Shown here in pieces: positions 1,254-35,352 of a stretch of 39,252 nucleotides of DNA. Each line of letters begins with the position of its first letter. Positions within the stretch are counted from its first letter, which is position 1. Made by a program: the position numbers and the translations under genes. The DNA comes from Methanosarcinales archaeon (GTDB taxonomy: Archaea > Halobacteriota > Methanosarcinia > Methanosarcinales > Methanogasteraceae), in the NCBI GenBank assembly GCA_030604085.1, contig JAUVWP010000003.1, forward strand, positions 1 through 39,252, read 5' to 3'. Below the pieces are notes generated by a model. The model ran no database searches. It was not told the origin of the DNA and was given only the letters and a program-made list of their open reading frames with translations.

Positions 1254-2228
1254 ATGATGGAGCTACTATTCCTGAACGAAGGCGACGTTACCGAACTGCT
1301 CGACATGCCAGGAGCGCTCAGCGTGGTTGAGGCGGCATTTCTGGAGCACGGCATGGGCAGGACGCAAATGCCTCCGAAGTCGTACCTGTACTTCCCAACA
1401 GGTGACCTCCGCACAATGCCAGCATACCTTGAGACGGCAGGGATCGCAGGCGTCAAGATCGTCAATGTGCACCCTGGCAACCCGGAGGCTGGACTACCTA
1501 CGGTGATGGCGGTCTTCATGCTGAACTCGATAGAGACCGGGGCATCGCTTGCCGTGATGGGCGGCACGTACCTGACAGATATGCGAACTGGTGCTGCGGG
1601 AGGCGTGGCTGCGGACCGCCTCGCACGAACTGACGCCGCGGTGGTCGGCATGGTCGGTGTCGGGCGGCAGGCGCGAACCCAGTTGCGTGCGATCTGCGAG
1701 GTCAGGAGCATCGAGACCGTCAAAGTCGTTGACCGCTCGGATGCGTCCTGCAAACGGTTCAGGGACGGCATGAAGAATCTCGGCTGCGAGATCACGGTGA
1801 TGGATGGCATCCGGCAGGTCTGCGACTGCGATATACTGGTCACGACAACGCCGGTCAGGGAGCCGATCGTGGCGGACGACTGGATACTGGACGGCACGCA
1901 CATCAACGCCATCGGCGCTGATGCAGCAGGCAAGGAGGAACTCGATCCGGAGATCCTCAGGCGGTCCAGAATCGTGATCGATGATCCTGCGCAGGCATTC
2001 CACTCTGGCGAGGTGAATGTCCCGCTAAAACTGGGTATCATATCTGAGGGGGACATCTACGGCACGCTTGGCGAGATCGTCGCAGGGATAAAGCCGGGAA
2101 GAACCGATGATGGCGAGATCACGGTCTTCGACTCGACAGGACTTGCCATACAGGACGTCTCGACAGCAAACCACGTCTATCAGCAGGCTGTCCGGAAAGG
2201 TATCGGAACACGCTTAAAATTATTCTAA
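1254..2228 (+). CDS. ala: Alanine dehydrogenase (ornithine cyclodeaminase/mu-crystallin family, archaeal type)
   Basis: [56 protein letters not shown]. Confidence 0.88.
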
Positions 2229-2944
2229 TGATGAACGCAGACGTATATGAGATATTCAACTCGGTTCAGGGCGAGGGAACCCGTGTCGGCGTGAGACAGG
2301 TCTTTGTCAGGTTCTGCGGCTGCCAGTTGCACTGCGAATACTGCGATACCGGAGCGGCAAGGGTTCCGGCAAAGAGGTGCAGGATTCTCGACAGGTATAT
2401 CGACAATCCGCTCGGTATGGATGCTGTGATCGACGCCATCGATGATCTGTGGACCCCCGCTACCCGAAGTGTCAGTCTAACAGGGGGAGAGCCGCTGTTG
2501 CACTGCGATTTCATAGGAGAACTTGTGAGGGGCGTTTCACGACCGATATATCTTGAGACTAACGCCGGTCTTCCGGATTCTGCCAGAACGATAGCAGATC
2601 ACATCGATATCGCTGCATGTGATATCAAACTCCCGGAACACAGGGCAACCCGGGATTATGACAGTCTTTTAGATGCTGAATTACAGTCGATCGAGATATT
2701 CCATACATCGGGTGCCGAAACTTTTGTCAAAATTATTGTTCTTCCGGAAACAACAGAAAAAAGCATCAGTGGCGCGGTTTTTGGAATCAAAGCCATCGAT
2801 GATTCGATTCCGCTGGTCATGCAGCCGGTAACTCCTTTGAGTGTTGATCTCTGCCAGTTGCTCGACCTGATGGACTTTGCAGGCGCGCACCTCTCCGATG
2901 TCCGCATGATTCCGCAACTGCACCGGATGATCGGAATTCCTTGA
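2228..2944 (+). CDS. queE: 7-carboxy-7-deazaguanine synthase (radical SAM)
   Basis: EIFNSVQGEG, FVRFCGCQLHCEYCDT (CxxxCxxC), SLTGGEPLL, YLETN, IPQLHR. Confidence 0.88.
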   Translation: MMNADVYEIFNSVQGEGTRVGVRQVFVRFCGCQLHCEYCDTGAARVPAKRCRILDRYIDNPLGMDAVIDAIDDLWTPATRSVSLTGGEPLLHCDFIGELVRGVSRPIYLETNAGLPDSARTIADHIDIAACDIKLPEHRATRDYDSLLDAELQSIEIFHTSGAETFVKIIVLPETTEKSISGAVFGIKAIDDSIPLVMQPVTPLSVDLCQLLDLMDFAGAHLSDVRMIPQLHRMIGIP

Positions 2945-3017: not shown

Positions 3018-3074
3018 CACTGGCTGAATGGAAGTAATTCTCTTCCCTGTTTGCGTATTGTAGGTATTTCTCAA

Positions 3075-3114
3075 AAACCTAACTTTATTAGGGTTAATTA
3101 TTTGCAAACCTAAC
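3075..3114 (+). promoter_or_regulatory. 40-bp promoter/operator motif, copy 1
   Basis: AAACCTAACTTTATTAGGGTTAATTATTTGCAAACCTAAC; same architecture at 5558 and 5967; followed by AGGAGG and the ATG at 3149. Confidence 0.8.
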
Positions 3115-3148
3115 TGCCCACATAGATGCACCCAAAAGGAGGTTTAAT

Positions 3149-5065
3149 ATGGAAGACACAAGATTTAAGGCAATTAGAAGAACTCTGTCAACAATCGTGC
3201 TGATAACGATCCTGCTATCATCGATCGCACCTGCTGTTGCCGGAGCTTACGAGAATGGCGGGGCGGATGAAAAGATCGGAGTCCTCGTCGTAGCACATGG
3301 AAGCCCGAGCGAGAGCTGGTGTAGCCATGTGCGGAATGAAACAGATGAGGTGGATCTGCCGTATCAGGTCGAACTCGGGTTCCTCGAGTTTGTACCAAAT
3401 GAGACGATCAATCTCGCTGTCGAGAGACTCGATGACGCCGGTGTAACAGAGATTATCGCTGTACCGCTCTTTATCTCATCACACAGCAGCCATATCCTGG
3501 AGATCGAGTATGTGCTCGGGCTTCGGGAGACGCTTCCACTGACAACTGAGCACGTCGTTGTCGAGGGCGTGGAGATGGAGCGGTCTGTCGTTCCGAATGG
3601 CGGTCGATACGCAATATCCCGTATGCCGCTTGAGGATGACGCTAACGGGGATATGCGAGCGCTGGGGCGCCCGGAAGAGGGGATGGAAGAGGAACTTGTG
3701 CCGGTCGAGACCGATGCAGAGATCATCCTCACCGCTGCGATGGATGACCACTGGCTTGTGGCAGGGATCGTTGCGGATCGCACGGCTGATCTGGTCGCGA
3801 ATCCGGAAGGCGAGACGCTCGTTCTCGTTGCGCATGGGACCGAGGAGGAGGATAACTTCGCCGGATGGGTGAACAGCACCTCATCGCTTGCCAATCAGGC
3901 GCGGCTGAAGCTTCTGTACTGGAGAGATCCCTCGATCGGGATTAGCGGCACAGAAGCCGCGTTTATCCACCATAACGAGACGCTTCACCCTGAATTCACG
4001 TTAAGACCGATCGTTTCAGACGCCGCGGATCCGGTCGTCGTCCCGCTGATGGTAAGTGAGGGATACTTCACAGGCACGAAGATTCCGGGTTTGCTTGAGA
4101 ACCTGACTTACGTCTACGATGGCAGTGCGCTTACGCCGCACCCGAATGTGGCTGAATGGATCGAGATCGTCGCTTCAGAAGAGTTCACAGATCTTACGCT
4201 CCGGATATCTGATGAAGGAGAACTTCTGGATATCTCGCTGGATGATGTGGGTGCTGCACACGGTCACATCTGCCCGTGCGTTGCAGCAGCGTTCAAGGCA
4301 AGCCAGACAGCGTTTCTGGCGTGGGACGGAGTTCCTCCTGCACGCGGCGATCTGGAGATTGCCAGTGCACACCCGTCCGACGGGCATACTGAGACGTTTG
4401 AGTACATCTTAAACTCAAGCGATGACGTCACAGTCAAGCTGCCCGAGGGAACTGATATCGTGAATCTGACTGCGGAGAACTACAACTACAGGTTCGTCGA
4501 GAAATCGACCGGCGACATGGTTGTGGTCAGCGCGAAGGATGGTCTTTTCCCTGACGGCTTCTTTGAGATGAGAAAGAGGTGCAAGACAGGGGTTACAACG
4601 CCTGACGAGAAGTTGGCATTCAAACTTGCGAAGGGGGAGCTTAAGGAGAAGATTCTCTATCTGCCGACAGAGGAAATCTTTGAGGTCGAGTATACCCGAG
4701 GAGGGAGTTCAACAGTACTCACCACCGAGATCATCCCCGCGATCTCGATGACGGTTCCGACGACAACTGTCGATTTCGGGAAGGTCGGGGCAGGGATGAC
4801 TTCTGCAAATCAGGTCATAACAGTCGTGAACACGGGAGCGAAATCTGCAAAGGTCTCTGCAATGATGCTGGATGACGATAGCGGATTCTACAACGAGTCG
4901 CTCTGGTTAAACAGCCTGAATATCGGTGGTTTCTCAAGCGTGGTGCCATCAGACACGTCAGACTTCAGATATGAGTATGAGATTCTCGCAAACCTTGTGG
5001 TGCCTGACTGGGCAGGAGGAAAGTATGATGGGACGATCTTTTTCGTTGCAGAAAGCGAGTCGTAG
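3149..5065 (+). CDS. Secreted CbiX-like chelatase-fold protein (two CbiX domains) fused to an FmdE-like domain and a C-terminal beta-rich domain
   Basis: N-terminal signal-like stretch; GVLVVAHGS...GFLEF...VPLFISSHSSH; second domain TLVLVAHGT...VVVPLMVSEGYFT...LTPHP; HGHICPC resembles the FmdE HGHxCP motif; AGGAGG ribosome site. Confidence 0.75.
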   Translation: MEDTRFKAIRRTLSTIVLITILLSSIAPAVAGAYENGGADEKIGVLVVAHGSPSESWCSHVRNETDEVDLPYQVELGFLEFVPNETINLAVERLDDAGVTEIIAVPLFISSHSSHILEIEYVLGLRETLPLTTEHVVVEGVEMERSVVPNGGRYAISRMPLEDDANGDMRALGRPEEGMEEELVPVETDAEIILTAAMDDHWLVAGIVADRTADLVANPEGETLVLVAHGTEEEDNFAGWVNSTSSLANQARLKLLYWRDPSIGISGTEAAFIHHNETLHPEFTLRPIVSDAADPVVVPLMVSEGYFTGTKIPGLLENLTYVYDGSALTPHPNVAEWIEIVASEEFTDLTLRISDEGELLDISLDDVGAAHGHICPCVAAAFKASQTAFLAWDGVPPARGDLEIASAHPSDGHTETFEYILNSSDDVTVKLPEGTDIVNLTAENYNYRFVEKSTGDMVVVSAKDGLFPDGFFEMRKRCKTGVTTPDEKLAFKLAKGELKEKILYLPTEEIFEVEYTRGGSSTVLTTEIIPAISMTVPTTTVDFGKVGAGMTSANQVITVVNTGAKSAKVSAMMLDDDSGFYNESLWLNSLNIGGFSSVVPSDTSDFRYEYEILANLVVPDWAGGKYDGTIFFVAESES

Positions 5066-5534
5066 GGGGATAATCCCCCTTCTCCTTCTTTTCCTGCTGA
5101 TCCCGCAAGCATCCGGGATCGGTGTTGGCGCATCACCTGACAGGATCGAGTTTGGCGTGGTGAGCCCGAAAGATGGAGCGGTACGAGAGCTGTACGTGAT
5201 CAACACCGGTGACGCGGCAGAACGAGTTTTACTCACGGTAGAAGGAGTAAATCTTACCGTAGACCCACTGGAGTTCGATCTTGCTGCAAAGGAGAACAGG
5301 GCTGTTGTGGTATCGGTAGATCATGCAGAAGCTGGCGAGCATGAGGGAAGCATCCTGATCACGGCTCGTCCGTCCGGAGACGGCGCAGGCGGGCTTGGTC
5401 TTGGCGCAGGCGTCAGGGTGCCGGTCTCGTTTGTTGTGGAGGACAGTACCTCATGGAAGGTCGTTGTCGTCGCCGGACCGCTTCTTCTTGTTGTGGCTGC
5501 TACGGTGTTCTGGAGGCGGCGAACAAAGGTGTGA
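5025..5534 (+). CDS. Exported Ig-like protein with C-terminal membrane anchor
   Basis: GGAGG upstream of ATG 5025; signal peptide (IIPLLLLFLLIPQASG); IGVGASPDRIEFG..LYVINTG beta-sandwich pattern; C-terminal TM followed by RRR. Confidence 0.7.
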   Translation: MMGRSFSLQKASRRGIIPLLLLFLLIPQASGIGVGASPDRIEFGVVSPKDGAVRELYVINTGDAAERVLLTVEGVNLTVDPLEFDLAAKENRAVVVSVDHAEAGEHEGSILITARPSGDGAGGLGLGAGVRVPVSFVVEDSTSWKVVVVAGPLLLVVAATVFWRRRTKV

Positions 5535-5557
5535 ATGATGTTTCGGGTTTTTGCGCT

Positions 5558-5597
5558 AAACCTAACTTTTTTAGGGCAACTTATTTCCATACCTAAC
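5558..5597 (+). promoter_or_regulatory. 40-bp promoter/operator motif, copy 2
   Basis: AAACCTAACTTTTTTAGGGCAACTTATTTCCATACCTAAC; followed by AGGAGGT and the ATG at 5636. Confidence 0.8.
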
Positions 5598-5635
5598 ACC
5601 ACAGTCTTCTAAAACATGAAAGGAGGTGGAGTACA

Positions 5636-5722
5636 ATGGGTTGTGAATGCGACGGAAACTGCGTACATTGCAGATGCAAGAAAGCCAAAGCGGCAAGCGA
5701 AGAAGTTGAAGACGAAGAGTGA
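5636..5722 (+). CDS. 28-aa Cys-rich peptide (metallothionein-like candidate), below the ORF-track cutoff
   Basis: MGCECDGNCVHCRCKKAKAASEEVEDEE*; AGGAGGT at 5621-5627; lies directly after motif copy 2. Confidence 0.7.
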   Translation: MGCECDGNCVHCRCKKAKAASEEVEDEE

Positions 5723-5966
5723 AAACCTGTGAGAAGATGCCTTGGAGCACCCTATGGAACGGATGAAAACCCCTCTCCGTTCCCGCACATATTGCAGGCA
5801 CATAACGAGTTTTATTGGCAAATACGTGGAGTTTGATCATCACATGAATGAGATGATTGAACAATACATCTCTTCGAAAGGTCTCTGCAGGACGATACAA
5901 TCGGCAGTGGTGATGTGGTGGGAGATTCTTGCTCAATGAATCTCAATAAGTTTGGATTTTCATTCA

Positions 5967-6006
5967 AAACCTAATATTTGTAGGGACAACTATTTGTATA
6001 CCTAAC
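5967..6006 (+). promoter_or_regulatory. 40-bp promoter/operator motif, copy 3
   Basis: AAACCTAATATTTGTAGGGACAACTATTTGTATACCTAAC. Confidence 0.78.
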
Positions 6007-6233
6007 ATCCAACTTACCGGATGCAGGCATACGCTTGCGGTAGACTCGAAAAACCCGCGTCTATGTAGCGAAATATATCGCCTCCTGGATAGTTTGATGC
6101 GGGAGTGTGGTACGGGGATCGTGGACCGGGAGTGGGGTAATCTCTCATACACATCCTCCGGCGATATGCTGCAAATCAGGACAAATGGCATCAGCATCTC
6201 AAAAACGATGCGAAAGTCGAATCGGTGAACTTC

Positions 6234-6373
6234 ATGGAAAACGTACAACAACTGACCAGATGCCCGAAGTGTGGAAAACGTCGTACGTATGCGGACATAC
6301 ACAGATCTGCAGCACATGCGGCTACTGGATCCTGAAAGGGACTGCGAGAATGGATTCGATCGTTGTCATCTGA
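6234..6373 (+). pseudogene. Small zinc-ribbon protein with a 1-nt frameshift
   Basis: GGTGA at 6224, then ATG: MENVQQLTRCPKCG. One extra A in the AAAA at 6275-6278 would join it to KTSYVCGHTQICSTCGYWILKGTARMDSIVVI*, giving CxxC...CxxCGY. Confidence 0.5.
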
Positions 6374-6631
6374 ACATCATTTTCCCACTCAGGAGAATCT
6401 GCGCATGTTCATGTCCAGGATCTTAAGAATCCTGATTTGTTCGGATTTTTGAATTTATTCGAGTTTTTGCATCACCGGTGTCGTATATATGGCGCAGTGG
6501 CCATATCCTGATCTCTTCGCAGACCTCGATCCTTCCAGTATACCTCAGGAGTATCTTGAGCGGTTTCAGGGCATGGAGGTGCCGGATAGAATCTTTGTGT
6601 ACCCGGCAAGTGAGCCATAAAGATCAGTAGA

Positions 6632-6994: not shown

Positions 6995-7219
6995 CTCTTC
7001 TTCGCCTCTTGTTATTTCACGTTGTTCGTTTGTCTTGCGATCAACTCTATTAATACTGTGTACGTAATAGGGCTGCCAACTTGGCTCTTGCGCTTGTATC
7101 AAACCTGAAGGCACACGTTTGCATAAATCACACGAATTGGGGCATCACAAATTTTTCTAATGTCTGGAAAGACTGTATCGACCGTGTCACGCTATTCCGA
7201 ATCCTTGCATCTACTGATA

Positions 7220-8110
7220 CTATCTCTCATGTGCGATCCCGCAGATATCCGGGACCTCGTGCCCGTGCACCTGGCAGTAACCCTCGATTCCGTCCGCAAT
7301 CTCTGCAAAGACCTGGATTCCTCCGCACACCGCAGACCCGACCTGCACAGCGCTTGCTCCAGCCATCATCATCTTGACCGCATCCTGCCACGTAGAGATC
7401 CCGCCGACCCCGATTATTGGTATGTCGAGCGCAGCATACAGGTCGTAGACACATTTCACGGCAATCGGCTTGATCGCAGTCCCTGAAAGTCCGCCGAACC
7501 GGTTGCCAAGGATCGGAAATCCAGATTCGATGTCGATAGCCATTGCACGCACGGTATTGATGGCAACAACGACATCCGCCCCCCCTTCCTGTGCGGCAAG
7601 CCCGATCTTTGTGATATCTGTGACATTCGGCGTCAGTTTCGCCCAGACCGGGATGTTAACCGCGTCCTTGACCGCAGATGTGATCTCCCGGACAAGAGAC
7701 GGGTCGATGCCGATGGACGCGCCGTATCTGTCTGCGTGCGGGCAGCTGAGGTTCAGTTCGATCCCGTCCGCAAGATCGCAGAGTCCGAGCGCAACCTCGA
7801 CGAATTCGGATGCGTTTCCACCGAAGATACTTGCAATCACAGGAACTTTGCCTTTCTTTGCGGTCACCAGCTCTTCGCGATATTGTTGATACCCTGGATT
7901 CGGCAGACCGAGCGCGTTAAGGAAACCACATTCGATTTTTACCATGCTCGGGTTCGGATGTCCGGAATTGGGCGAGCGTCCGATTGATTTTGTGACGACT
8001 GCGCCTGCGCCGCTGCCTGCAACTCGCAGGAGCGATGCGCCGGTACTACCGAGGATTCCAGCGGCGAGGATCGTTGGGTTCTTCAGTTTCAGCCCTGTTA
8101 TGGTTATCAT
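7220..8110 (-). CDS. pyrD: Dihydroorotate dehydrogenase, family 1B catalytic subunit
   Basis: LKNPTILAAG, GAVVTKS, NALGLPNPG, IELNLSCPH, KLTPNVTDI, INT, GGLSG.AIKPIA, IIGVGGI. Confidence 0.95.
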   Translation of the reverse strand: MITITGLKLKNPTILAAGILGSTGASLLRVAGSGAGAVVTKSIGRSPNSGHPNPSMVKIECGFLNALGLPNPGYQQYREELVTAKKGKVPVIASIFGGNASEFVEVALGLCDLADGIELNLSCPHADRYGASIGIDPSLVREITSAVKDAVNIPVWAKLTPNVTDITKIGLAAQEGGADVVVAINTVRAMAIDIESGFPILGNRFGGLSGTAIKPIAVKCVYDLYAALDIPIIGVGGISTWQDAVKMMMAGASAVQVGSAVCGGIQVFAEIADGIEGYCQVHGHEVPDICGIAHER

Positions 8111-8431
8111 GTTCAATTCCCCTTCGTTCCAATATCTTATGATCGTTTCTATGAATCTTTTCAATGAATTTTTTTATGGCATGATTCACCATGCCGAGAG
8201 ATCATAAATTGAATTTCTCAAATATATTTTTCAATGTTGCGCAGATCAGGATCAAAAAGTATATATAGGACTTATTTCAGAAAGTAAGTTCATAGCAATA
8301 CCAAGTATGGATATGGTCATGGGATAGGGTTCTATTCTGTGCATAATTCTATGCTTGGTGTCGGTGCATGAAACCGAACACATACCGTTCGATTGCGGAC
8401 GGAATCATACCACAAAAGGAGGTAAGAACAA

Positions 8432-8659
8432 ATGGCAAAGAAAATACTACCATTGGCTCCAGTTGAGCGACTTATACGGGCTGCATCCGAAGGCGACATC
8501 AGGGTCAGCGAATCAGCATGCAGCGCTTTGACCGACGAGCTCGAGAAGATCGGAATGAAAATCGCTAAGGAAGCGATTATCGAGACGAAACACGCGGGCA
8601 GAAAGACGGTTAAGGCAGAAGACATCAACAGAGCACTTGATATACTCAAACTGGGCTGA
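8432..8659 (+). CDS. Archaeal histone (HMf family)
   Basis: LPLAPVERLIR...RVS...AKEA...HAGRKTVKAEDI; AGGAGGT ribosome site; AAAAAGTATATATA promoter-like stretch near 8255. Confidence 0.96.
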   Translation: MAKKILPLAPVERLIRAASEGDIRVSESACSALTDELEKIGMKIAKEAIIETKHAGRKTVKAEDINRALDILKLG

Positions 8660-8678
8660 ACTTCCGGTTTGAACGCTT

Positions 8679-8720
8679 GCCGCCCGGCGAATCGGTCGTT
8701 GTGGGCGGTCTTATTTTTTT
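8679..8720 (+). terminator. Hairpin plus T-tract after the histone gene
   Basis: ccgccc...gggcgg stem followed by ttattttttt. Confidence 0.55.
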
Positions 8721-8729
8721 AGGGGTACC

Positions 8730-9620
8730 ATGAACACATATTACACATCTGAAGAGATCGAGAAGTATCGGCAGGCGGGAAAGATCCTTGCAGAGGTGCG
8801 GGAGCAGACCGCAAAGAGAATAACAGTCGGAGCGAGCATCCTTGAGACCGCGGTCTTTTCAGAGAATCTGATACGCGATCTCGGCGGACAGCCCGCATTC
8901 CCGTGCAACCTTTCGCTAAACGAGGATGCTGCGCACTATACGCCCGGCGCAGACGATACAGCGGTATTCGGCGAAGATATGGTAAAACTCGACATCGGGG
9001 TCCACGTCGATGGATATATCGCGGATGCTGCCATGACCGTCGATCTTTCAGATCATCCTGAACTCGTGGACGCGTCGAGGGCAGCGCTTGAGAGCGCTAT
9101 CGGCGTGATTCACGCCGGCATCGACACAAGGGAGATTGGGGCGGCAATCGAGGAGACGATTGGTGAGTTCGGATACAGACCGATCTCAAACCTCACAGGA
9201 CACGGACTCGCACAATACCAGGCACATGCCCAACCAAGCATCCCGAACGTACATGCACGCACCGGAACCGTGCTTTACGATGGGCAGGTGGTCGCAATCG
9301 AGCCGTTCGCTACTGAGGGGGAAGGAAAGGTCAGGGATGCGACGAGATGGGAGATTTACCACGTGACGACAGAAAAACCCACGCTTTCGCGCATTCCAAG
9401 AGAAAGAGCACTGCTAAAGGAGATGATGGAGTATAAAAACCTCCCGTTTGCGAGAAGATGGTTTTCCGGAGCGAAGATCGACCTCACATTCAGGCAACTG
9501 ACAAAAGCAGGACTTATCAAACCTTATCCCATCCTGCGGGAGGTCACCGGTGCGCTCGTGTCTCAGGCAGAGCATACCGTGATCGTCACCGAGAATGGCT
9601 GTGAGGTTACAACTGCATGA
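8730..9620 (+). CDS. map: Methionine aminopeptidase type II
   Basis: [53 protein letters not shown]. Confidence 0.97.
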
Positions 9621-10531
9621 TGCATCTCATCTCCGTATCAGACCTGACGCACGAGGAGATATATGAGCTCCTCGATCTGGCTGCCCGGATAAAAGAGAGA
9701 CGCGGCCATTACACGGATGCGCTCAAAGACATGAGTCTTGCCATGATATTTGAAAAGCCGTCCACGCGCACGAGGGTTTCATTTGAGGTTGCGATGACCG
9801 AATTCGGAGGACACGCGCTCTACTTGAATTACGCCGATCTCCAGCTCGGACGGAGCGAGACGATCTGCGATACCGCAAGCGTGCTCTCCAGATACGTCCA
9901 TGTGATCATGGCGCGGGTTTATCGCCACGAGACCGTACGTGAACTTGCGAGATGCGCAGATATCCCTGTGATCAATGCGCTCTCTGATATGGAGCATCCG
10001 TGCTAGTTGCTTGCAGATCTGCTGACCATCCGGGAACGAAAAGGCGATCTTAAGGATCTGCGCATCGCGTGGATCGGGGACGGGAACAACGTCTGCAACT
10101 CACTGATACTTGGAAGTGCAATAACCGGCATGAACCTCTCGGTAGCGTGCCCTGCCGGATATGAGCCGGATGCGGGGATGGTGGCTAATGCTAACGAACT
10201 CGGAAGCGGCGTCTTGATTACAAACGACCCGATCGAGGCAGCATCCGGCGCTGATGTCCTCTACACCGATGTATGGGTATCGATGGGGGATGAGAAGGAA
10301 GAAGAGAAGCGCCTCCGGGATTTTTCCGGTTTCCAGATCAACAACGATCTTTTGAGTCATGCAAAATCCGATTGTATCGTGCTTCACTGCCTACTAGCGC
10401 ATCGCGGTCAGGAAATCTCTGCCGAGGTGTTGGATGGCGAGCATTCGGTTGTGATGGATCAGGCAGAGAACCGACTGCACGCGCAAAAAGCGCTACTGAT
10501 GACGGTGATCCCGCGCCAGTGCGATGGGTAA
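9617..10531 (+). CDS. argF: Ornithine carbamoyltransferase, interrupted by an in-frame TAG at 10004-10006
   Basis: [24 protein letters not shown] (canonical HPCQ), [25 protein letters not shown] (canonical HCLPAHRG), DQAENRLH. ORFs 9617-10006 and 10007-10531 are in the same frame. Confidence 0.92.
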
Positions 10532-30258: not shown

Positions 30259-30606
30259 ATGACCGAGTACAAACAGTGCATCATCATCCGGGAGGATCTG
30301 AAACTCTCACGCGGGAAACTTGCGGTGCAGGTCGCACATGCTGCAGTATCTGCGGCAGAGCAAGCGGATTCGAGCACTCGCAGGGCATGGAAGGATGGCG
30401 GGCAGAAGAAGATCGTGCTGCAGGTGAAGGATATCTCAGAGATGTATGAACTGAAGATGGACGCGGAAGCAGCAGGGCTTCCGGCATCGCTGATCACGGA
30501 CGCGGGTCTAACCGAGATACCGCCTGGCACTGTCACAGCACTCGGCATAGGACCTGGCAAGTCTGATAAACTGGACGCGGTCACAGGAGAACTGCGGCTG
30601 GTGTAG
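30259..30606 (+). CDS. pth2: Peptidyl-tRNA hydrolase Pth2 (intact copy)
   Basis: KQCIIIREDLKLSRGKLAVQVAHAA, W...GQKKIVL, DAGLTEIPPGTVTALGIGP. Confidence 0.97.
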   Translation: MTEYKQCIIIREDLKLSRGKLAVQVAHAAVSAAEQADSSTRRAWKDGGQKKIVLQVKDISEMYELKMDAEAAGLPASLITDAGLTEIPPGTVTALGIGPGKSDKLDAVTGELRLV

Positions 30607-30749
30607 ATGCTCGAAGTCTCAGCCTCGTCACACCCGATTAAAATCGGGCGTATCCGTGTTGTTTCATCCTCCCCTCATCAAAAGATGTGCCACAGCTAAT
30701 AATCCTGTGATCGTAAATAAAAATTCAAATCCACTCTATTTCATGCATG

Positions 30750-32105
30750 TCATGTTTTCTTACATGCCATATCACATTTTCCATTTCCATCGAATTTGCA
30801 CTCTATTTTTTCCCTTTTATCGATTCGATATATTTTTATTTTTTCAGATTCCGGTGATTCAGGATCTATGATGATAAATGAATTGGTACACTTTCTCTCA
30901 TGGGGTTCTTTCACCCATCCGCCGCAGTTGTAAATGTTTAGATTAGTTTTCGAATCTCTTATCTTTCCCGCAACATGGGTATGTGCAAATATATAATGAT
31001 TAATCTTCTTTTTATCGTTTCCCAACTCCTCTATGAGGTTTAGGTAAGTGTAGTTTTTTCTTTCCATACTGATATCTTTTTCTGTTATTTCATGCATAAC
31101 TTTCTTGATGGTGTTCCCTCTTTTATTGCTAACAGTGTTTGTCACAACATTCGAAAGCAATATTCCACTTATTTTAGGAAGAGAATAAACTAACGCTGTG
31201 ATAGGTACGCCTATTTTAAGTATCCGTATAGGTTCAAGACTATGTAGCCACTCAGGTATTCCGGAACTATAAAGAGTTATTAAACTCGGTAAACTCGGCA
31301 ATATAAAACCTATAATAGCAGAAAAAATAAGCCAGCGCGCTTTTTTAATTCTCCAAATAAAGTCCCTTCCCGCTCGTACTACGTCATCGAATTTTGTGTA
31401 GTATATCAGTGAATAGAGAGATGAAAAATTTGATTCGAGGTCGTTTCTGATTTCTTCGGAATCGGCATCTTTTTTAATTTTTATTGGTCTTCTGTGGAAT
31501 ATACTTGAAAATATGGGAATAGTCGGGACATATTTGTAGACTTTTGCAAGAAAAACTTTCATAAACCTTTCTGCTCTCTCAGGATAATGCCCGTGATCAA
31601 AGTATATAGTTCCCAGTCCGTCGATTTCCCGTTTATAGTGTGGATAGTAGAACTTCACATTTTTCAGTTCATGGGTGAGATTTAGATTGCCTATTTCATT
31701 TATTAGCCCTTTAAATATTTTTTCCGGCTTTTTGCCGTTTATTATATCTCTATATCTTTCTAAACTATCCATTCCGAAGCTTATTTCTTTTAAAAAATGG
31801 TCATGGTTTCCTATAACATATATTAATTCTACATCACGATCTTTATTATTTTCCACATATTTCGAAAGCCTTTCAAAGAATTGTATATCACTTGCATTAT
31901 CCCATGCATCCGCAAATCCTACCCGCCATAAATCAAAAATATCTCCAAGTAAAATTATTTCCTTGGGCTTAATCTCAGTTTCTATCAAATCCAAAAGATT
32001 TATAAGATCTACAACATTTGTTTCCTCATCTTCAGTTGGGTCATGTATTACGCCGAAATGTGTATCCGAAAATACAACAATTTTGTTCAAATTATCTAAA
32101 CCCAT
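30750..32105 (-). CDS. Calcineurin-like metallophosphoesterase with two internal TM helices (AT-rich, probably acquired)
   Basis: SDTHFG, LLGDIFD, GNHD, HGH, FAHTH, YNCGGW; GGAGG before ATG 32105. Confidence 0.85.
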   Translation of the reverse strand: MGLDNLNKIVVFSDTHFGVIHDPTEDEETNVVDLINLLDLIETEIKPKEIILLGDIFDLWRVGFADAWDNASDIQFFERLSKYVENNKDRDVELIYVIGNHDHFLKEISFGMDSLERYRDIINGKKPEKIFKGLINEIGNLNLTHELKNVKFYYPHYKREIDGLGTIYFDHGHYPERAERFMKVFLAKVYKYVPTIPIFSSIFHRRPIKIKKDADSEEIRNDLESNFSSLYSLIYYTKFDDVVRAGRDFIWRIKKARWLIFSAIIGFILPSLPSLITLYSSGIPEWLHSLEPIRILKIGVPITALVYSLPKISGILLSNVVTNTVSNKRGNTIKKVMHEITEKDISMERKNYTYLNLIEELGNDKKKINHYIFAHTHVAGKIRDSKTNLNIYNCGGWVKEPHERKCTNSFIIIDPESPESEKIKIYRIDKREKIECKFDGNGKCDMACKKT

Positions 32106-32769: not shown

Positions 32770-33115
32770 ATGACCGAGTACAAACAGTGCATCATCATCC
32801 GGAAAGATCTGAAACTCTCACCGGGAAACTTGCGGTGCAGGTCGCACATGCTGCGGTATCTGCGGCAGAGCAAGCGGATTCGAGCACTCGCAGGGCATGG
32901 AAGGATGGCGGGCAGAAGAAGATCGTGCTGCAGGTGAAAGATATCTCAGAGATGTATGAACTGAAGATGGACGCGGAAGCAGCAGGGATTCCGGCATCGC
33001 TGATCACGGACGCAGGTCTAACCGGATACCGCCCGGCACTGTCACAGCACTCGGCATAGGGCTTGGCAAGTCCGATAAACTGGACGCGGTCACAGGGGAA
33101 CTGCGGCTGGTGTAG
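32770..33115 (+). pseudogene. pth2: Second pth2 copy with two 1-nt deletions
   Basis: Manual alignment to 30259-30606: 11 substitutions and 2 single-base deletions (near 32821 and 33026); 346 vs 348 nt. Confidence 0.9.
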
Positions 33116-33194
33116 ATGGTCGGGTCACCAAACTACGTGCGACGCCTTCACTTTCACTTCCTCGAGCAAAGAGCGCACACCAGTGAATCCGGAA

Positions 33195-33392
33195 TCAATC
33201 ATCATCAAAGATAAACAGCTCCTCAATCGTCGTCTCCAGAACCTTTGCGACATCATGCGCCAGCTTGAGCGACGGATTATACTTTCCCTTCTCGAGAAAC
33301 ACAATCGTCTCCCTCCTGACCCCAACCTCCTTCGCAAGTTCCTCCTGAGTCAGGTTGTATCGTGCCCGCAGCTCCTTGATTCTGGTATTCAC
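33195..33392 (-). CDS. Small XRE-family HTH regulator
   Basis: [44 protein letters not shown]; GTG start overlaps the upstream TGA. Confidence 0.92.
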
Positions 33393-33793
33393 CGGACGTC
33401 GCCCCTCCGATTGTAATACCATCTGAGTATAACAAACGAAAGCATTCCAACAAAGAAAATATCAGGCGAAACGCTCTTATAGCTAAGATTTAATCTCCCA
33501 AACATAGCTATTGATTGAACAAGAGCCATGGTCACAAGCAGAATCCAGAATGCATGATAACCTGCCTTTTCGTCGACTCTCACAGATCGTTCATCCTGTA
33601 TCAGATCTTCTTTAGGTCTTGCTGCTGTGATGATGGCTATGATGATCGCAATAATCCCCATGATGATCAGGACGAAACCAATCCCGAAATAGGTGAGACC
33701 GGAAAGAAAACTCATCATAAGGATTCCGACGAGGATCAATAGAACAGCAATGCCTGAGAAACGCAGGATATCTTTATCTTTTCTGAATTTCAT
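33389..33793 (-). CDS. DUF2178-like 4-TM membrane protein, copy 5
   Basis: MKFRKDK...[17 protein letters not shown]...[10 protein letters not shown]. Confidence 0.82.
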
Positions 33794-34200
33794 CAAACCA
33801 CGTCTCCTTTTCTGCTGTAATGCCACCTGAGTACGCTCCACGAAATTATCCCGACAAACATCGCCGCATAGTACATATCTACGAGTTCGACTCCAATCGA
33901 CCATACCCGATCCGACCAGAACAGGATGGTTATCGATAGCAGAACCAGCCAGAACGCATGATAACCTGCCTTTTCGTCGACTCTCGTGACCCGTTCGTCT
34001 ACCACCAGTTCTGTTTCCGGCTTTGTTGCGGCGTGTAACAATATAGCAAACATAAGCATCCCGGCAACGATCAAGCCCAGACTGATGAAGGACATGGCCC
34101 TGGAAGGCGCCCCAAAGGTCAGTATGGCAGCAGCCAGCACAATCACGCTCAAACTGACCCCCATAGACCGCAGAATCTTATTGTTAGTTCTTATTTTCAT
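33793..34200 (-). CDS. DUF2178-like 4-TM membrane protein, copy 4
   Basis: MKIRTN...[17 protein letters not shown]...LRWHYSRKGD. Confidence 0.82.
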   Translation of the reverse strand: MKIRTNNKILRSMGVSLSVIVLAAAILTFGAPSRAMSFISLGLIVAGMLMFAILLHAATKPETELVVDERVTRVDEKAGYHAFWLVLLSITILFWSDRVWSIGVELVDMYYAAMFVGIISWSVLRWHYSRKGDVV

Positions 34201-34517
34201 CCCACATCCCCCATCCTGCTGTAGTAACAATGCGCAACCAGAAAACTCCCGATCATCGTTCCGGAAACAGCGGCGATAACCAGACGGACAGTCAACAGTT
34301 CCGGTCTGACTATACATGCGAACGCCAGAGTCCCAACGGTCACGAATGTGAGACACCATGAGGCACTCAACGACTGTTTTGTGATCCTGTTTGTTCGCTC
34401 GTCAAATTCTATCTCGTCTACGTGCTTATACCCCCGCCGCAGCCTGCAAACCGTTTCATAAAGCACCACGATCAGCACGAAATACAGACACCATATCCAG
34501 AAATCTCCTTCCTGCAT
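34197..34517 (-). CDS. DUF2178-like membrane protein, copy 3 (divergent, possibly 5'-truncated)
   Basis: DERTNRITKQSLSASW...YYSRMGD. The ATG at 34557 that overlaps the upstream stop is out of frame and stops after 11 codons. Confidence 0.65.
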   Translation of the reverse strand: MQEGDFWIWCLYFVLIVVLYETVCRLRRGYKHVDEIEFDERTNRITKQSLSASWCLTFVTVGTLAFACIVRPELLTVRLVIAAVSGTMIGSFLVAHCYYSRMGDVG

Positions 34518-34553
34518 ATTCTCACTTCTCCCGGATTCCTAACGATATGTTCC

Positions 34554-34967
34554 TCATACGATCTCACCTCTCCTGTTGTAGTACCATCTGAGTATAAGAA
34601 ATGAATATATTCCCACTATTAGGGTCATGGTGTACATATCCTTAAGTTCGAGGTTCAGTGACCAGATTTTGTCTGCCCAGAACATGAACGTCACAGACAA
34701 CATAATTAGCCAGCCCGCAGTATAACCCGCTTTTTCAGTGATTCTCGTGACCCTTTCATCCGCTACGAGTTCTGTTTTTGGTTTTGTTGTCGTTGCGGCA
34801 TACAACGCTACAATGAATATGAATAATCCGAAAATAATTAAATTTATTCCAACAAAAAGCAGGGCTTTGGAATATAGCTGGAACTGGAACGCAAGCACAC
34901 CCAATAGGACCGACAACAGACCAATTCCTGAAGCGAGTAAAATCTTTTTATTTGTTCTTATTTTCAT
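34554..34967 (-). CDS. DUF2178-like 4-TM membrane protein, copy 2
   Basis: MKIRTN...DERVTRITEKAGY...[10 protein letters not shown]. Confidence 0.82.
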   Translation of the reverse strand: MKIRTNKKILLASGIGLLSVLLGVLAFQFQLYSKALLFVGINLIIFGLFIFIVALYAATTTKPKTELVADERVTRITEKAGYTAGWLIMLSVTFMFWADKIWSLNLELKDMYTMTLIVGIYSFLILRWYYNRRGEIV

Positions 34968-34968
34968 A

Positions 34969-35352
34969 TCATTCACCTTTTTTGTTGTACATCCATTGGA
35001 ATACAAGCCACACATATATCCCGACTAAAAATAGCAATGCGTATATTTGAGATGGTGACGGCATCCATATTTTATAAAAATAAAGCAAATTGAAGATAAT
35101 TATCAATATAAGCATTGTATTAAATGCGTGATAACCTGCCTTTTCTTTGTTTCTTACTGAACGCTCATCTTCAATAAAATCTTCCGTTGACTTTGTAGCA
35201 TTGTATAATGCGCCAAGTGTCAGGATTAACCCTGCAAGAATCCATCCATACCCTATATCAAAACCAAACATCAGGATTGCTGAACCTACTGCCATTAATC
35301 CCATGCTCATCATAAAACGATTTCTCACATCTTCATCTTTTCTTATTTTCAT
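34969..35352 (-). CDS. DUF2178-like 4-TM membrane protein, copy 1
   Basis: MKIRKD...[16 protein letters not shown]...WMYNKKGE. Confidence 0.82.
   Translation of the reverse strand: MKIRKDEDVRNRFMMSMGLMAVGSAILMFGFDIGYGWILAGLILTLGALYNATKSTEDFIEDERSVRNKEKAGYHAFNTMLILIIIFNLLYFYKIWMPSPSQIYALLFLVGIYVWLVFQWMYNKKGE

Follow-up and report, generated by a model that had tools for sequence, protein, structure and literature searches.

A conserved 28-codon gene of uncultured methane-cycling archaea that probably encodes a small metal-binding protein

Introduction

Metallothioneins are operationally recognized as proteins of low mass that contain approximately 15-30% Cys in CxC and CxxC arrangements and few or no aromatic residues, and that form metal-thiolate clusters with several ions of d10 or other metals. 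Their synthesis is induced by metal excess via a metal-sensing de-repressor or activator, and they include the short fungal Cu-thioneins of ~25 residues as well as the bacterial proteins SmtA and BmtA, which carry His. Small Cys-rich peptides of ~20-45 residues are further represented by the methanobactin precursor MbnA and by SCIFF, with a nearby exporter, a link to metal acquisition and a C-terminal Cys core. Methane-oxidising and methane-producing archaea have a high demand for cofactors with Ni, Co, Fe, Zn and Mo/W; to our knowledge, the intracellular trafficking of these metals in methane-cycling archaea is barely known, and we know of no characterised archaeal metallothionein-like protein. 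Literature searches yielded no paper linking ANME-1 to metallothionein or to DtxR and none on ANME-1 with FeoB, nickel and cobalt, and an archaeal metallothionein is not reported in the sections of PMC3600143 and PMC3407056 considered here.

Archaeal microproteins with Cys motifs are described in passages of PMC12704099 and PMC13525628, namely the C(P)xCG zinc-finger microproteins of Haloferax and the CxxC-x17-CxxC proteins of M. mazei, and two M. mazei members bind zinc according to ICP-MS. For metal-dependent regulation, the consensus operator of DtxR is quoted in a passage of PMC7762939.

Here we describe an ORF of 28 codons located in a stretch of 39,252 nucleotides from a Methanosarcinales archaeon (assembly GCA_030604085.1), in the following referred to as the window. 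Its product resembles metallothioneins in its tiny size, in a Cys content of 18% arranged as CxC/CxxC, in the lack of aromatics, in one His ligand and in its probable disorder in the absence of metal. It differs from them in having no sequence relation to any Pfam or NCBIfam model or PDB chain, in its only five Cys, its long acidic tail and its archaeal host, and in a promoter that is common to uptake genes and not to efflux or detoxification genes. With the zinc proteins of Haloferax and M. mazei, as far as these are covered by the cited passages of PMC12704099 and PMC13525628, it shares the archaeal origin, the fact of having been missed by annotation and a Cys motif that defines function. 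Those proteins, however, possess two CxxC knuckles ~17 residues apart forming a zinc ribbon, and a zinc ribbon as characterised in PMC12704099, in the part used here, has two CxxC/CPxCG knuckles ~10-20 residues apart, whereas the microprotein carries a single CxxC (C9-C12) and all of its ligands lie within 12 residues. The zinc-ribbon class is represented at this locus by a separate ORF of 46 aa located after the third copy of a promoter motif. In comparison to MbnA and SCIFF, the microprotein is similar in size and Cys content, in a nearby exporter and in the link to metal acquisition, but it has no conserved adjacent maturase, its Cys are N-terminal and not in a C-terminal core, and its gene survives the deletion of exporter and methyltransferase.

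Materials and Methods

The microprotein ORF was detected only once the length threshold for ORFs had been reduced to 20 aa. Relatives of the locus were obtained via the downstream ORF 5742..5939, for which four database homologues with 67-98% identity were found; protein alignment of these homologues led to 16 loci from MAGs, which do not include the window's own genome. The respective records are assigned to Methanosarcinales archaeon or Methanobacteriota archaeon, with one Candidatus Methanophagaceae (ANME-1), one Hadarchaeota and two Caldisericota. The distribution of the microprotein was assessed within these 16 loci, all collected through its neighbour gene. Copies of the 40-nt motif were listed by a fuzzy search of the window and the 16 loci allowing up to 11 substitutions in 40 nt.

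Results

The ORF, which starts with ATG and whose coordinates include the stop codon (Table 1), encodes the product MGCECDGNCVHCRCKKAKAASEEVEDEE. Cys residues 3, 5, 9, 12 and 14 together with His 11 form the arrangement CxC-x3-CxxCxC, which spans 12 residues and is followed C-terminally by KKAKA and by the acidic tail SEEVEDEE. Five of the 28 residues are Cys (18%), Phe, Tyr and Trp are absent, hydrophobic residues are almost lacking and the net charge is approximately -4. A Shine-Dalgarno sequence (AGGAGGT) is located 8 nt 5′ of the ATG, and the second of the three copies of the 40-nt motif present in the window ends 38 nt upstream of the ATG. A first-pass annotation of the DNA had proposed an unannotated peptide of this length with five Cys and one His in 12 residues, basic and then acidic tails, a strong ribosome site and its own motif copy, all of which was confirmed by the ORF translation and the positions listed in Table 1. 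Translation of the window in all six frames gave a single match to the Cys pattern; at least one match was obtained in 3 out of 300 mononucleotide shuffles (mean 0.01). A gene of 87 nt is shorter than the minimum length accepted by common gene callers.

Table 1: Features of the microprotein locus; positions refer to the window.
Feature	Position	Strand	Remarks
Motif copy 1, core	3075-3114	+	34 nt upstream of the CbiX/FmdE start codon (ATG)
638-aa protein	3149..5065	+	N-terminal hydrophobic signal-like segment, CbiX domain, weak FmdE match; motif copy 1
Small Ig-like (choice-of-anchor-D-like) protein	4926..5534	+	weak matches; hydrophobic N- and C-terminal segments
Motif copy 2, core	5558-5597	+	within 57-nt repeat 5542-5598
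Shine-Dalgarno AGGAGGT	5621-5627	+	8 nt before ATG
Cys5His microprotein ORF, 28 codons	5636..5722	+	conservation, frame-specific selection
61-aa ORF	5754..5939	+	C-terminal remnant of 274-aa SAM methyltransferase
Motif copy 3, core	5967-6006	+	followed by ~225-nt conserved leader and zinc-ribbon small ORF
Zinc-ribbon microprotein gene, 46 aa (CPKCG...CSTCG in relatives)	6234..6373	+	broken in the window

The first hint that the DNA of the microprotein is conserved was obtained from P0003, one of the database homologues, which is a gene-caller fusion with an N-terminus derived from the +1 frame across this DNA. Six of the 16 loci (L001, L003, L004, L005, L006 and L008) contain the 28-codon ORF without loss of any of the five Cys or of the His, and the Cys/His pattern is retained in all seven sequences when the window is included. 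Both tblastn with two variants and a relaxed scan for Cys-rich small ORFs were negative for additional homologues, in the window as well as in the ten loci without the ORF. Among these, L002 is uninformative, as its ~860 nt upstream of the match fall short of the ORF position in L003, L005 and L006, and L007 offers ~2.6 kb. The lack of a homologue in the available flanks of ten out of 16 loci indicates that the distribution of the microprotein is narrow or patchy.

Five of the six carriers show 86-92% nucleotide identity to the window over several kb, with L004 and L001 being closest (~91-92%). These five differ from the window by just 1-3 nt within the 87-nt ORF, resulting in V10A, A20V and three synonymous changes. 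In the six-genome alignment, 5 of 87 columns are variable in the ORF compared to 157 of 599 in the upstream gene (Fisher p = 5 × 10−6), and the respective values are 10 of 38 for the 5′UTR, 7 of 23 for the spacer and 1 of 40 for the 40-nt motif. This pattern argues for a constraint that sets in at the motif, is relaxed in the 5′UTR except for the Shine-Dalgarno sequence and resumes at the ATG. At the Shine-Dalgarno sequence, AAAGGAGGT is unchanged among the six close sequences, and the corresponding bases of L008 are GAGGTG.

The copy in L008, which reads MDCECGGNCAHCKCKGAQDVHEEVDEEE, is divergent with 24 nt differences, and nevertheless contains no indel and ends at the same stop position. 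Comparing the window with L008, the dN/dS ratio in the microprotein frame is 0.16 (Nei-Gojobori) and the lowest of the six frames, a value that depends on this single comparison with 13.8 synonymous sites and a dS saturated at 1.4, within a set of seven sequences of which six are nearly identical. The other frames open in both sequences gave 2.8, 2.9 and 0.56, and two frames contain stops. Frames +1, -0 and -2 are also free of stops in the window or L008; across all seven sequences this holds only for -0 and -2. Third codon positions are unusually conserved, with 3 of 28 variable in the ORF versus 73 of 199 in the neighbouring gene (p = 0.005), which suggests an extra constraint at the nucleotide level that is not accounted for by pure protein-level selection. 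No unusual fold of the microprotein mRNA was observed in comparison to shuffles (z = 0.16), and no Rfam family reached its gathering score, the matches at E ≤ 5 being restricted to chance-level vertebrate lncRNA and plant miRNA models; on these two grounds, a reading as an RNA element was not supported. With the frame and the Cys pattern kept in relatives, as the first-pass annotation had asked to be checked, and with frame-specific selection, the ORF very probably represents a real, lineage-restricted protein-coding gene.

Family searches with the microprotein yielded no Pfam family at E ≤ 0.1 or at E ≤ 10, no NCBIfam match at E ≤ 10 using three microprotein variants, with the model TIGR04165 for methanogen Cys-rich peptides included, and no PDB chain at E ≤ 10. 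The compositional definition of a metallothionein thus applies to the peptide (28 aa, 18% Cys, CxC-x3-CxxCxC, no aromatics), whereas its assignment to an established metallothionein sequence family was not supported.

The 638-aa protein encoded upstream matches CbiX in Pfam (2.6 × 10−11) and, below the cut-off, FmdE (0.0071). Its closest NCBIfam models are the sirohydrochlorin nickelochelatase NF002090 (6.5 × 10−10) and CfbA (2 × 10−9), both below the cut-off, and the orthologues in L003 carry a dockerin domain as well. The Ig-like ORF, the true start of which is uncertain, ends 23 nt before the core of motif copy 2 and is conserved in L001 and L003-L006.

Downstream of the microprotein, the gene order is best seen in L003, where the microprotein (7130-7216) is followed by a spacer of ~570 nt, a PadR gene (7788-8081), an MFS gene (8078-9265) and a methyltransferase gene (9314-10138). 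The last 47 residues of this 274-aa methyltransferase are homologous to the 61-aa ORF of the window. The window, L001 and L004 have a deletion of ~2.7 kb in common (the alignment jumps from 5726 to 5796, corresponding to 7217-10000 in L003), which removed the PadR gene, the MFS gene and most of the methyltransferase. The database entries P0001, P0002 and P0004 are such 61-aa stumps annotated as proteins, and P0003 combines the stump with the +1 frame of the microprotein DNA. The 61-aa ORF had also been considered as a ribbon-helix-helix regulator binding the motif, which was rejected as it is the stump of the methyltransferase. L008 contains the full methyltransferase ~190 nt after the microprotein and neither PadR nor MFS, and in L012 the motif directly precedes the methyltransferase and the microprotein is absent. 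In L003, L005 and L006, 330-570 nt separate the microprotein from a PadR gene that has its own BRE/TATA-like element. The methyltransferase or its stump is the sole neighbour that is constant in all seven sequences, and the microprotein and its promoter are unaltered where the methyltransferase is destroyed (window, L001 and L004). The spacer between microprotein and PadR of L003 additionally harbours a MITE-like insertion of ~250 nt with flanking inverted repeats (~7430-7720), which is absent in L005 and L006.

The motif preceding the microprotein belongs to a repeat family (D4) with three 57-nt copies in the window, at 3059-3115, 5542-5598 and 5951-6007. Copy 2 contains a BRE/TATA-like AAACCTAAC-TTTTTTAGGG, an A/T-rich TTATTT block and ACCTAAC, and is identical in five of the seven microprotein-bearing sequences, with one substitution in L004 and two in L008. 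Conserved blocks of the module are AAACC(T/G)AA, TTTnTAGGG, T(A/T)TTT and CCTAAC. We take the first two to be BRE and TATA and the last two to be a promoter-proximal element and the initiator region.

In total, 24 matches to the module were obtained in the window and the 16 loci. Each has the same orientation as the gene that follows it, and where a likely ATG of this gene is evident, the distance from the end of the match is 17-38 nt. Seven copies precede the microprotein, five precede CbiX/FmdE proteins with signal-like N-termini (one with a dockerin domain) and seven precede the ~225-nt conserved leader with the 46-aa zinc-ribbon ORF. Two copies (L010 and L013) head a triple-FeoA protein followed by FeoB, one (L012) heads a methyltransferase beside a ZIP transporter, one (L013) lies ~30 nt after an MntR/DtxR-family gene and a further degenerate copy was found in L003. 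The regulator gene of L013 (2834-3307) encodes 158 aa with both DtxR-family Pfam domains and has MntR as its best NCBIfam match (6 × 10−31, below the cut-off); the same gene row also includes a ZIP gene. Such a regulator gene adjoins a motif copy in one of the 16 loci, and the scanned ORFs of the window did not include a DtxR-family gene.

Similar to the regulons of DtxR, IdeR and MntR, the module precedes feoAB and, in L012, the ZIP-adjacent methyltransferase, and one copy abuts an MntR-like gene. It shares AACCTAA and TTAGG with the DtxR consensus as quoted in the relevant passage of PMC7762939, where these are the core half-sites. The DtxR operator given there is one 19-bp palindrome, whereas the half-sites of the module flank a T-rich TATA-like centre and a third site follows ~22 nt downstream; moreover, unlike in the DtxR/IdeR/MntR systems, the module is an archaeal BRE/TATA promoter. 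No paper on the 40-nt motif was found in the literature listed for DtxR, archaea, operator and TATA box. The module looks like a complete promoter with an operator, and its half-sites and gene content point to a metal-dependent repressor of the MntR/DtxR family as the most likely regulator; it could also be just a strong core promoter without a metal-sensing operator. Being common to uptake genes and adjacent to an MntR/DtxR gene, the module suggests induction under metal shortage, and the regulon looks like one of the uptake or starvation type rather than one with the excess-metal induction typical of metallothioneins.

Longer gene rows are headed by the module in two of the more distantly related loci. 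The row of L013 (3339-12834) includes DUF2325, a minimum of seven methyltransferases and a ZIP transporter. In L010 (17-10141), the module heads triple-FeoA, FeoB, an FmdE-like protein and a methyltransferase, with DUF2162, ExbB-like, DUF2149 and radical-SAM genes located upstream of the module. These rows suggest that the metal regulon is larger and, for reasons that are not apparent, rich in methyltransferases. Just after the zinc-ribbon gene, L001-L003, L005 and L006 possess a fourth, degenerate motif copy (L003 10661-10946); at position 6470 of the window this copy is truncated, and ~270 nt are missing in comparison to L003.

The unit consisting of motif copy 3, leader and zinc-ribbon gene comprises 5967-6373 in the window, 1436-1840 in L001 and 10173-10578 in L003. 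The zinc-ribbon gene of the window has lost one nucleotide near 6290 and is thereby distributed over two frames (6234.. and 6185..6373); the 46-aa ORF is intact in L001, L003, L004 and L005 and lies inside longer ORFs in L002 and L006. Going by its motif copy and its Cys pairs, this ORF would be a second Cys-rich microprotein of the same putative regulon. Covariation did not support a structure of the ~225-nt leader (term -0.11 kcal/mol; compensatory change in 2 of 54 pairs).

Three further observations concern the remainder of the window. The pyrB gene for aspartate carbamoyltransferase (9617-10531) contains an in-frame TAG at 10004-10006, where L001 and L003 have CAG (Gln) within the conserved HPCQ; possible causes are a nonsense mutation, an error of sequencing or assembly, and read-through of an amber codon. 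A direct duplication (30259-30613 and 32770-33122, 92-98% identity) covers the gene of peptidyl-tRNA hydrolase (PTH2) and brackets a segment of low GC content (0.34 at 31001-32000) with a metallophosphoesterase and an IS200-like transposase, which looks like a mobile insertion. On the minus strand at 33392-35352, four paralogues of a DUF2178 predicted membrane protein (Pfam) are arranged in tandem (repeats D2, D5 and D10).

Discussion

From these comparisons we infer translation, metal binding and regulation alike, and consider it about an even chance (probability roughly 0.5) that the gene encodes a translated, lineage-restricted metal-thiolate microprotein belonging to a metal-homeostasis regulon. 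It would form a transcription unit of its own, in which the 40-nt module provides an archaeal core promoter of the BRE/TATA type, followed by a 5′UTR of ~25-38 nt with a near-perfect Shine-Dalgarno sequence and the 28 codons. As it has no aromatics, almost no hydrophobics and a negative net charge, the peptide probably lacks a fold as long as its five thiolates and one imidazole have not enclosed one or two metal ions. It would then act as a minimal metallothionein or metallochaperone, expressed under the control of an MntR/DtxR-family metal-dependent repressor alongside metal-uptake functions, and would receive, hold or pass on incoming metal rather than detoxify an excess. Receipt and allocation of a scarce metal is favoured over detoxification by the partners, which are Feo importers, ZIP-adjacent genes and secreted chelatase-like proteins. 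Consequently, the initial proposal of a metal-buffering or chaperone microprotein is to be revised in part: the link to metal is supported by the promoter common to feoAB, the ZIP-adjacent methyltransferase and the CbiX/FmdE genes and by the MntR/DtxR gene, whereas buffering as such was not supported, as the co-regulated partners are uptake genes and point to metal shortage and not to excess.

The small number of ligands is a weakness of the metal-thiolate reading, since five Cys offer little storage capacity. The same feature would suit a small metal-dependent regulatory microprotein. In this case, the Cys5His cluster would serve as a sensor of metal or of an Fe-S cluster, and the regulon would be tuned by docking of the acidic tail to a partner, for example the repressor of the MntR/DtxR type or a Feo transporter. 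The genomic context of such a regulator would be identical to that of the metal-thiolate microprotein, and the charge pattern of KKAKA and acidic tail, kept in L008 with EEVDEEE, suggests an interaction surface. However, nothing separates this function from simple metal carriage, and we regard it as possible though improbable.

Since the methyltransferase or its remnant is the only constant downstream neighbour, the ORF might instead be a regulatory uORF or leader peptide that controls the methyltransferase, and PadR-MFS where present, for example in response to the supply of cysteinyl-tRNA or metal. In line with this, the motif lies directly before the methyltransferase in L012, and in L008 the stretch separating the ORF from the methyltransferase revealed no additional motif copy. 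A leader peptide implies a dispensable peptide sequence and tight downstream coupling; yet the amino acid sequence itself is under selection according to the dN/dS ratio, the spacers measure 190-570 nt and in L003, L005 and L006 include a separate BRE/TATA-like element before PadR, no RNA structure was detected, and in the window, L001 and L004 the ORF has outlasted the downstream gene with its promoter unchanged. Control of the methyltransferase by a leader peptide therefore appears doubtful.

The neighbourhood in L003, L005 and L006, where PadR, an MFS transporter and a SAM methyltransferase follow a short Cys-rich peptide with a promoter common to uptake genes, and the secreted CbiX/FmdE/dockerin proteins immediately upstream also recall a RiPP-type metallophore precursor, that is, an exported thiol-rich chelator methylated or otherwise processed by the methyltransferase, exported by MFS and recaptured by the secreted CbiX/FmdE proteins. 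The methyltransferase resembles a daptide-type RiPP methyltransferase model weakly (6.9 × 10−7, 29 bits versus a cut-off of 175). Nevertheless, a conserved adjacent maturase and a leader/core architecture, which define such precursors, were not found: no maturase is common to the seven loci, the radical-SAM gene of the window (2228-2944) lies 2.7 kb off behind two genes, and the peptide has no leader/core layout, no signal sequence, a highly charged C-terminus and no match to TIGR04165. Furthermore, the window, L001 and L004 lack PadR, MFS and an intact methyltransferase, and L008 has neither PadR nor MFS. We thus consider a RiPP precursor unlikely. Very unlikely, in our opinion, is the most far-reaching variant, according to which the peptide would be the ribosomal core of an archaeal thiol metal shuttle, the counterpart of methanobactin in anaerobic methanotrophs, made under shortage from an MntR/DtxR-controlled promoter, optionally methylated, exported and recaptured by secreted CbiX/FmdE-dockerin proteins. 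As part of this variant, the gene may have originated de novo within the spacer that separates the promoter from the methyltransferase, given that the promoter directly precedes the methyltransferase in L012.

Finally, the open frame might be incidental to an untranslated element of the DNA or RNA, for instance a small RNA or a binding site close to the promoter. This would explain why synonymous sites are far more conserved than in the neighbouring gene and why further frames are free of stops, but appears very unlikely in view of a 5′UTR changing at background rate while Shine-Dalgarno sequence, ATG and ORF are kept, of the length, stop position, Cys and His retained in L008 and the lowest dN/dS ratio in the microprotein frame, and of the ordinary fold energy and the lack of an Rfam family.

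Conclusion

The 28-codon gene represents a conserved gene whose length of less than 30 codons hides it from standard annotation. With 28 residues, the candidate is accessible by chemical synthesis. The sharply defined 40-nt promoter/operator could delimit a whole metal regulon in uncultured archaea, the candidate members of which are feoAB, ZIP-adjacent genes, secreted CbiX/FmdE proteins and two Cys-rich microproteins. Judged by its conserved ligands and its genomic context, the microprotein is probably a new small metal-binding protein of uncultured methane-cycling archaea.
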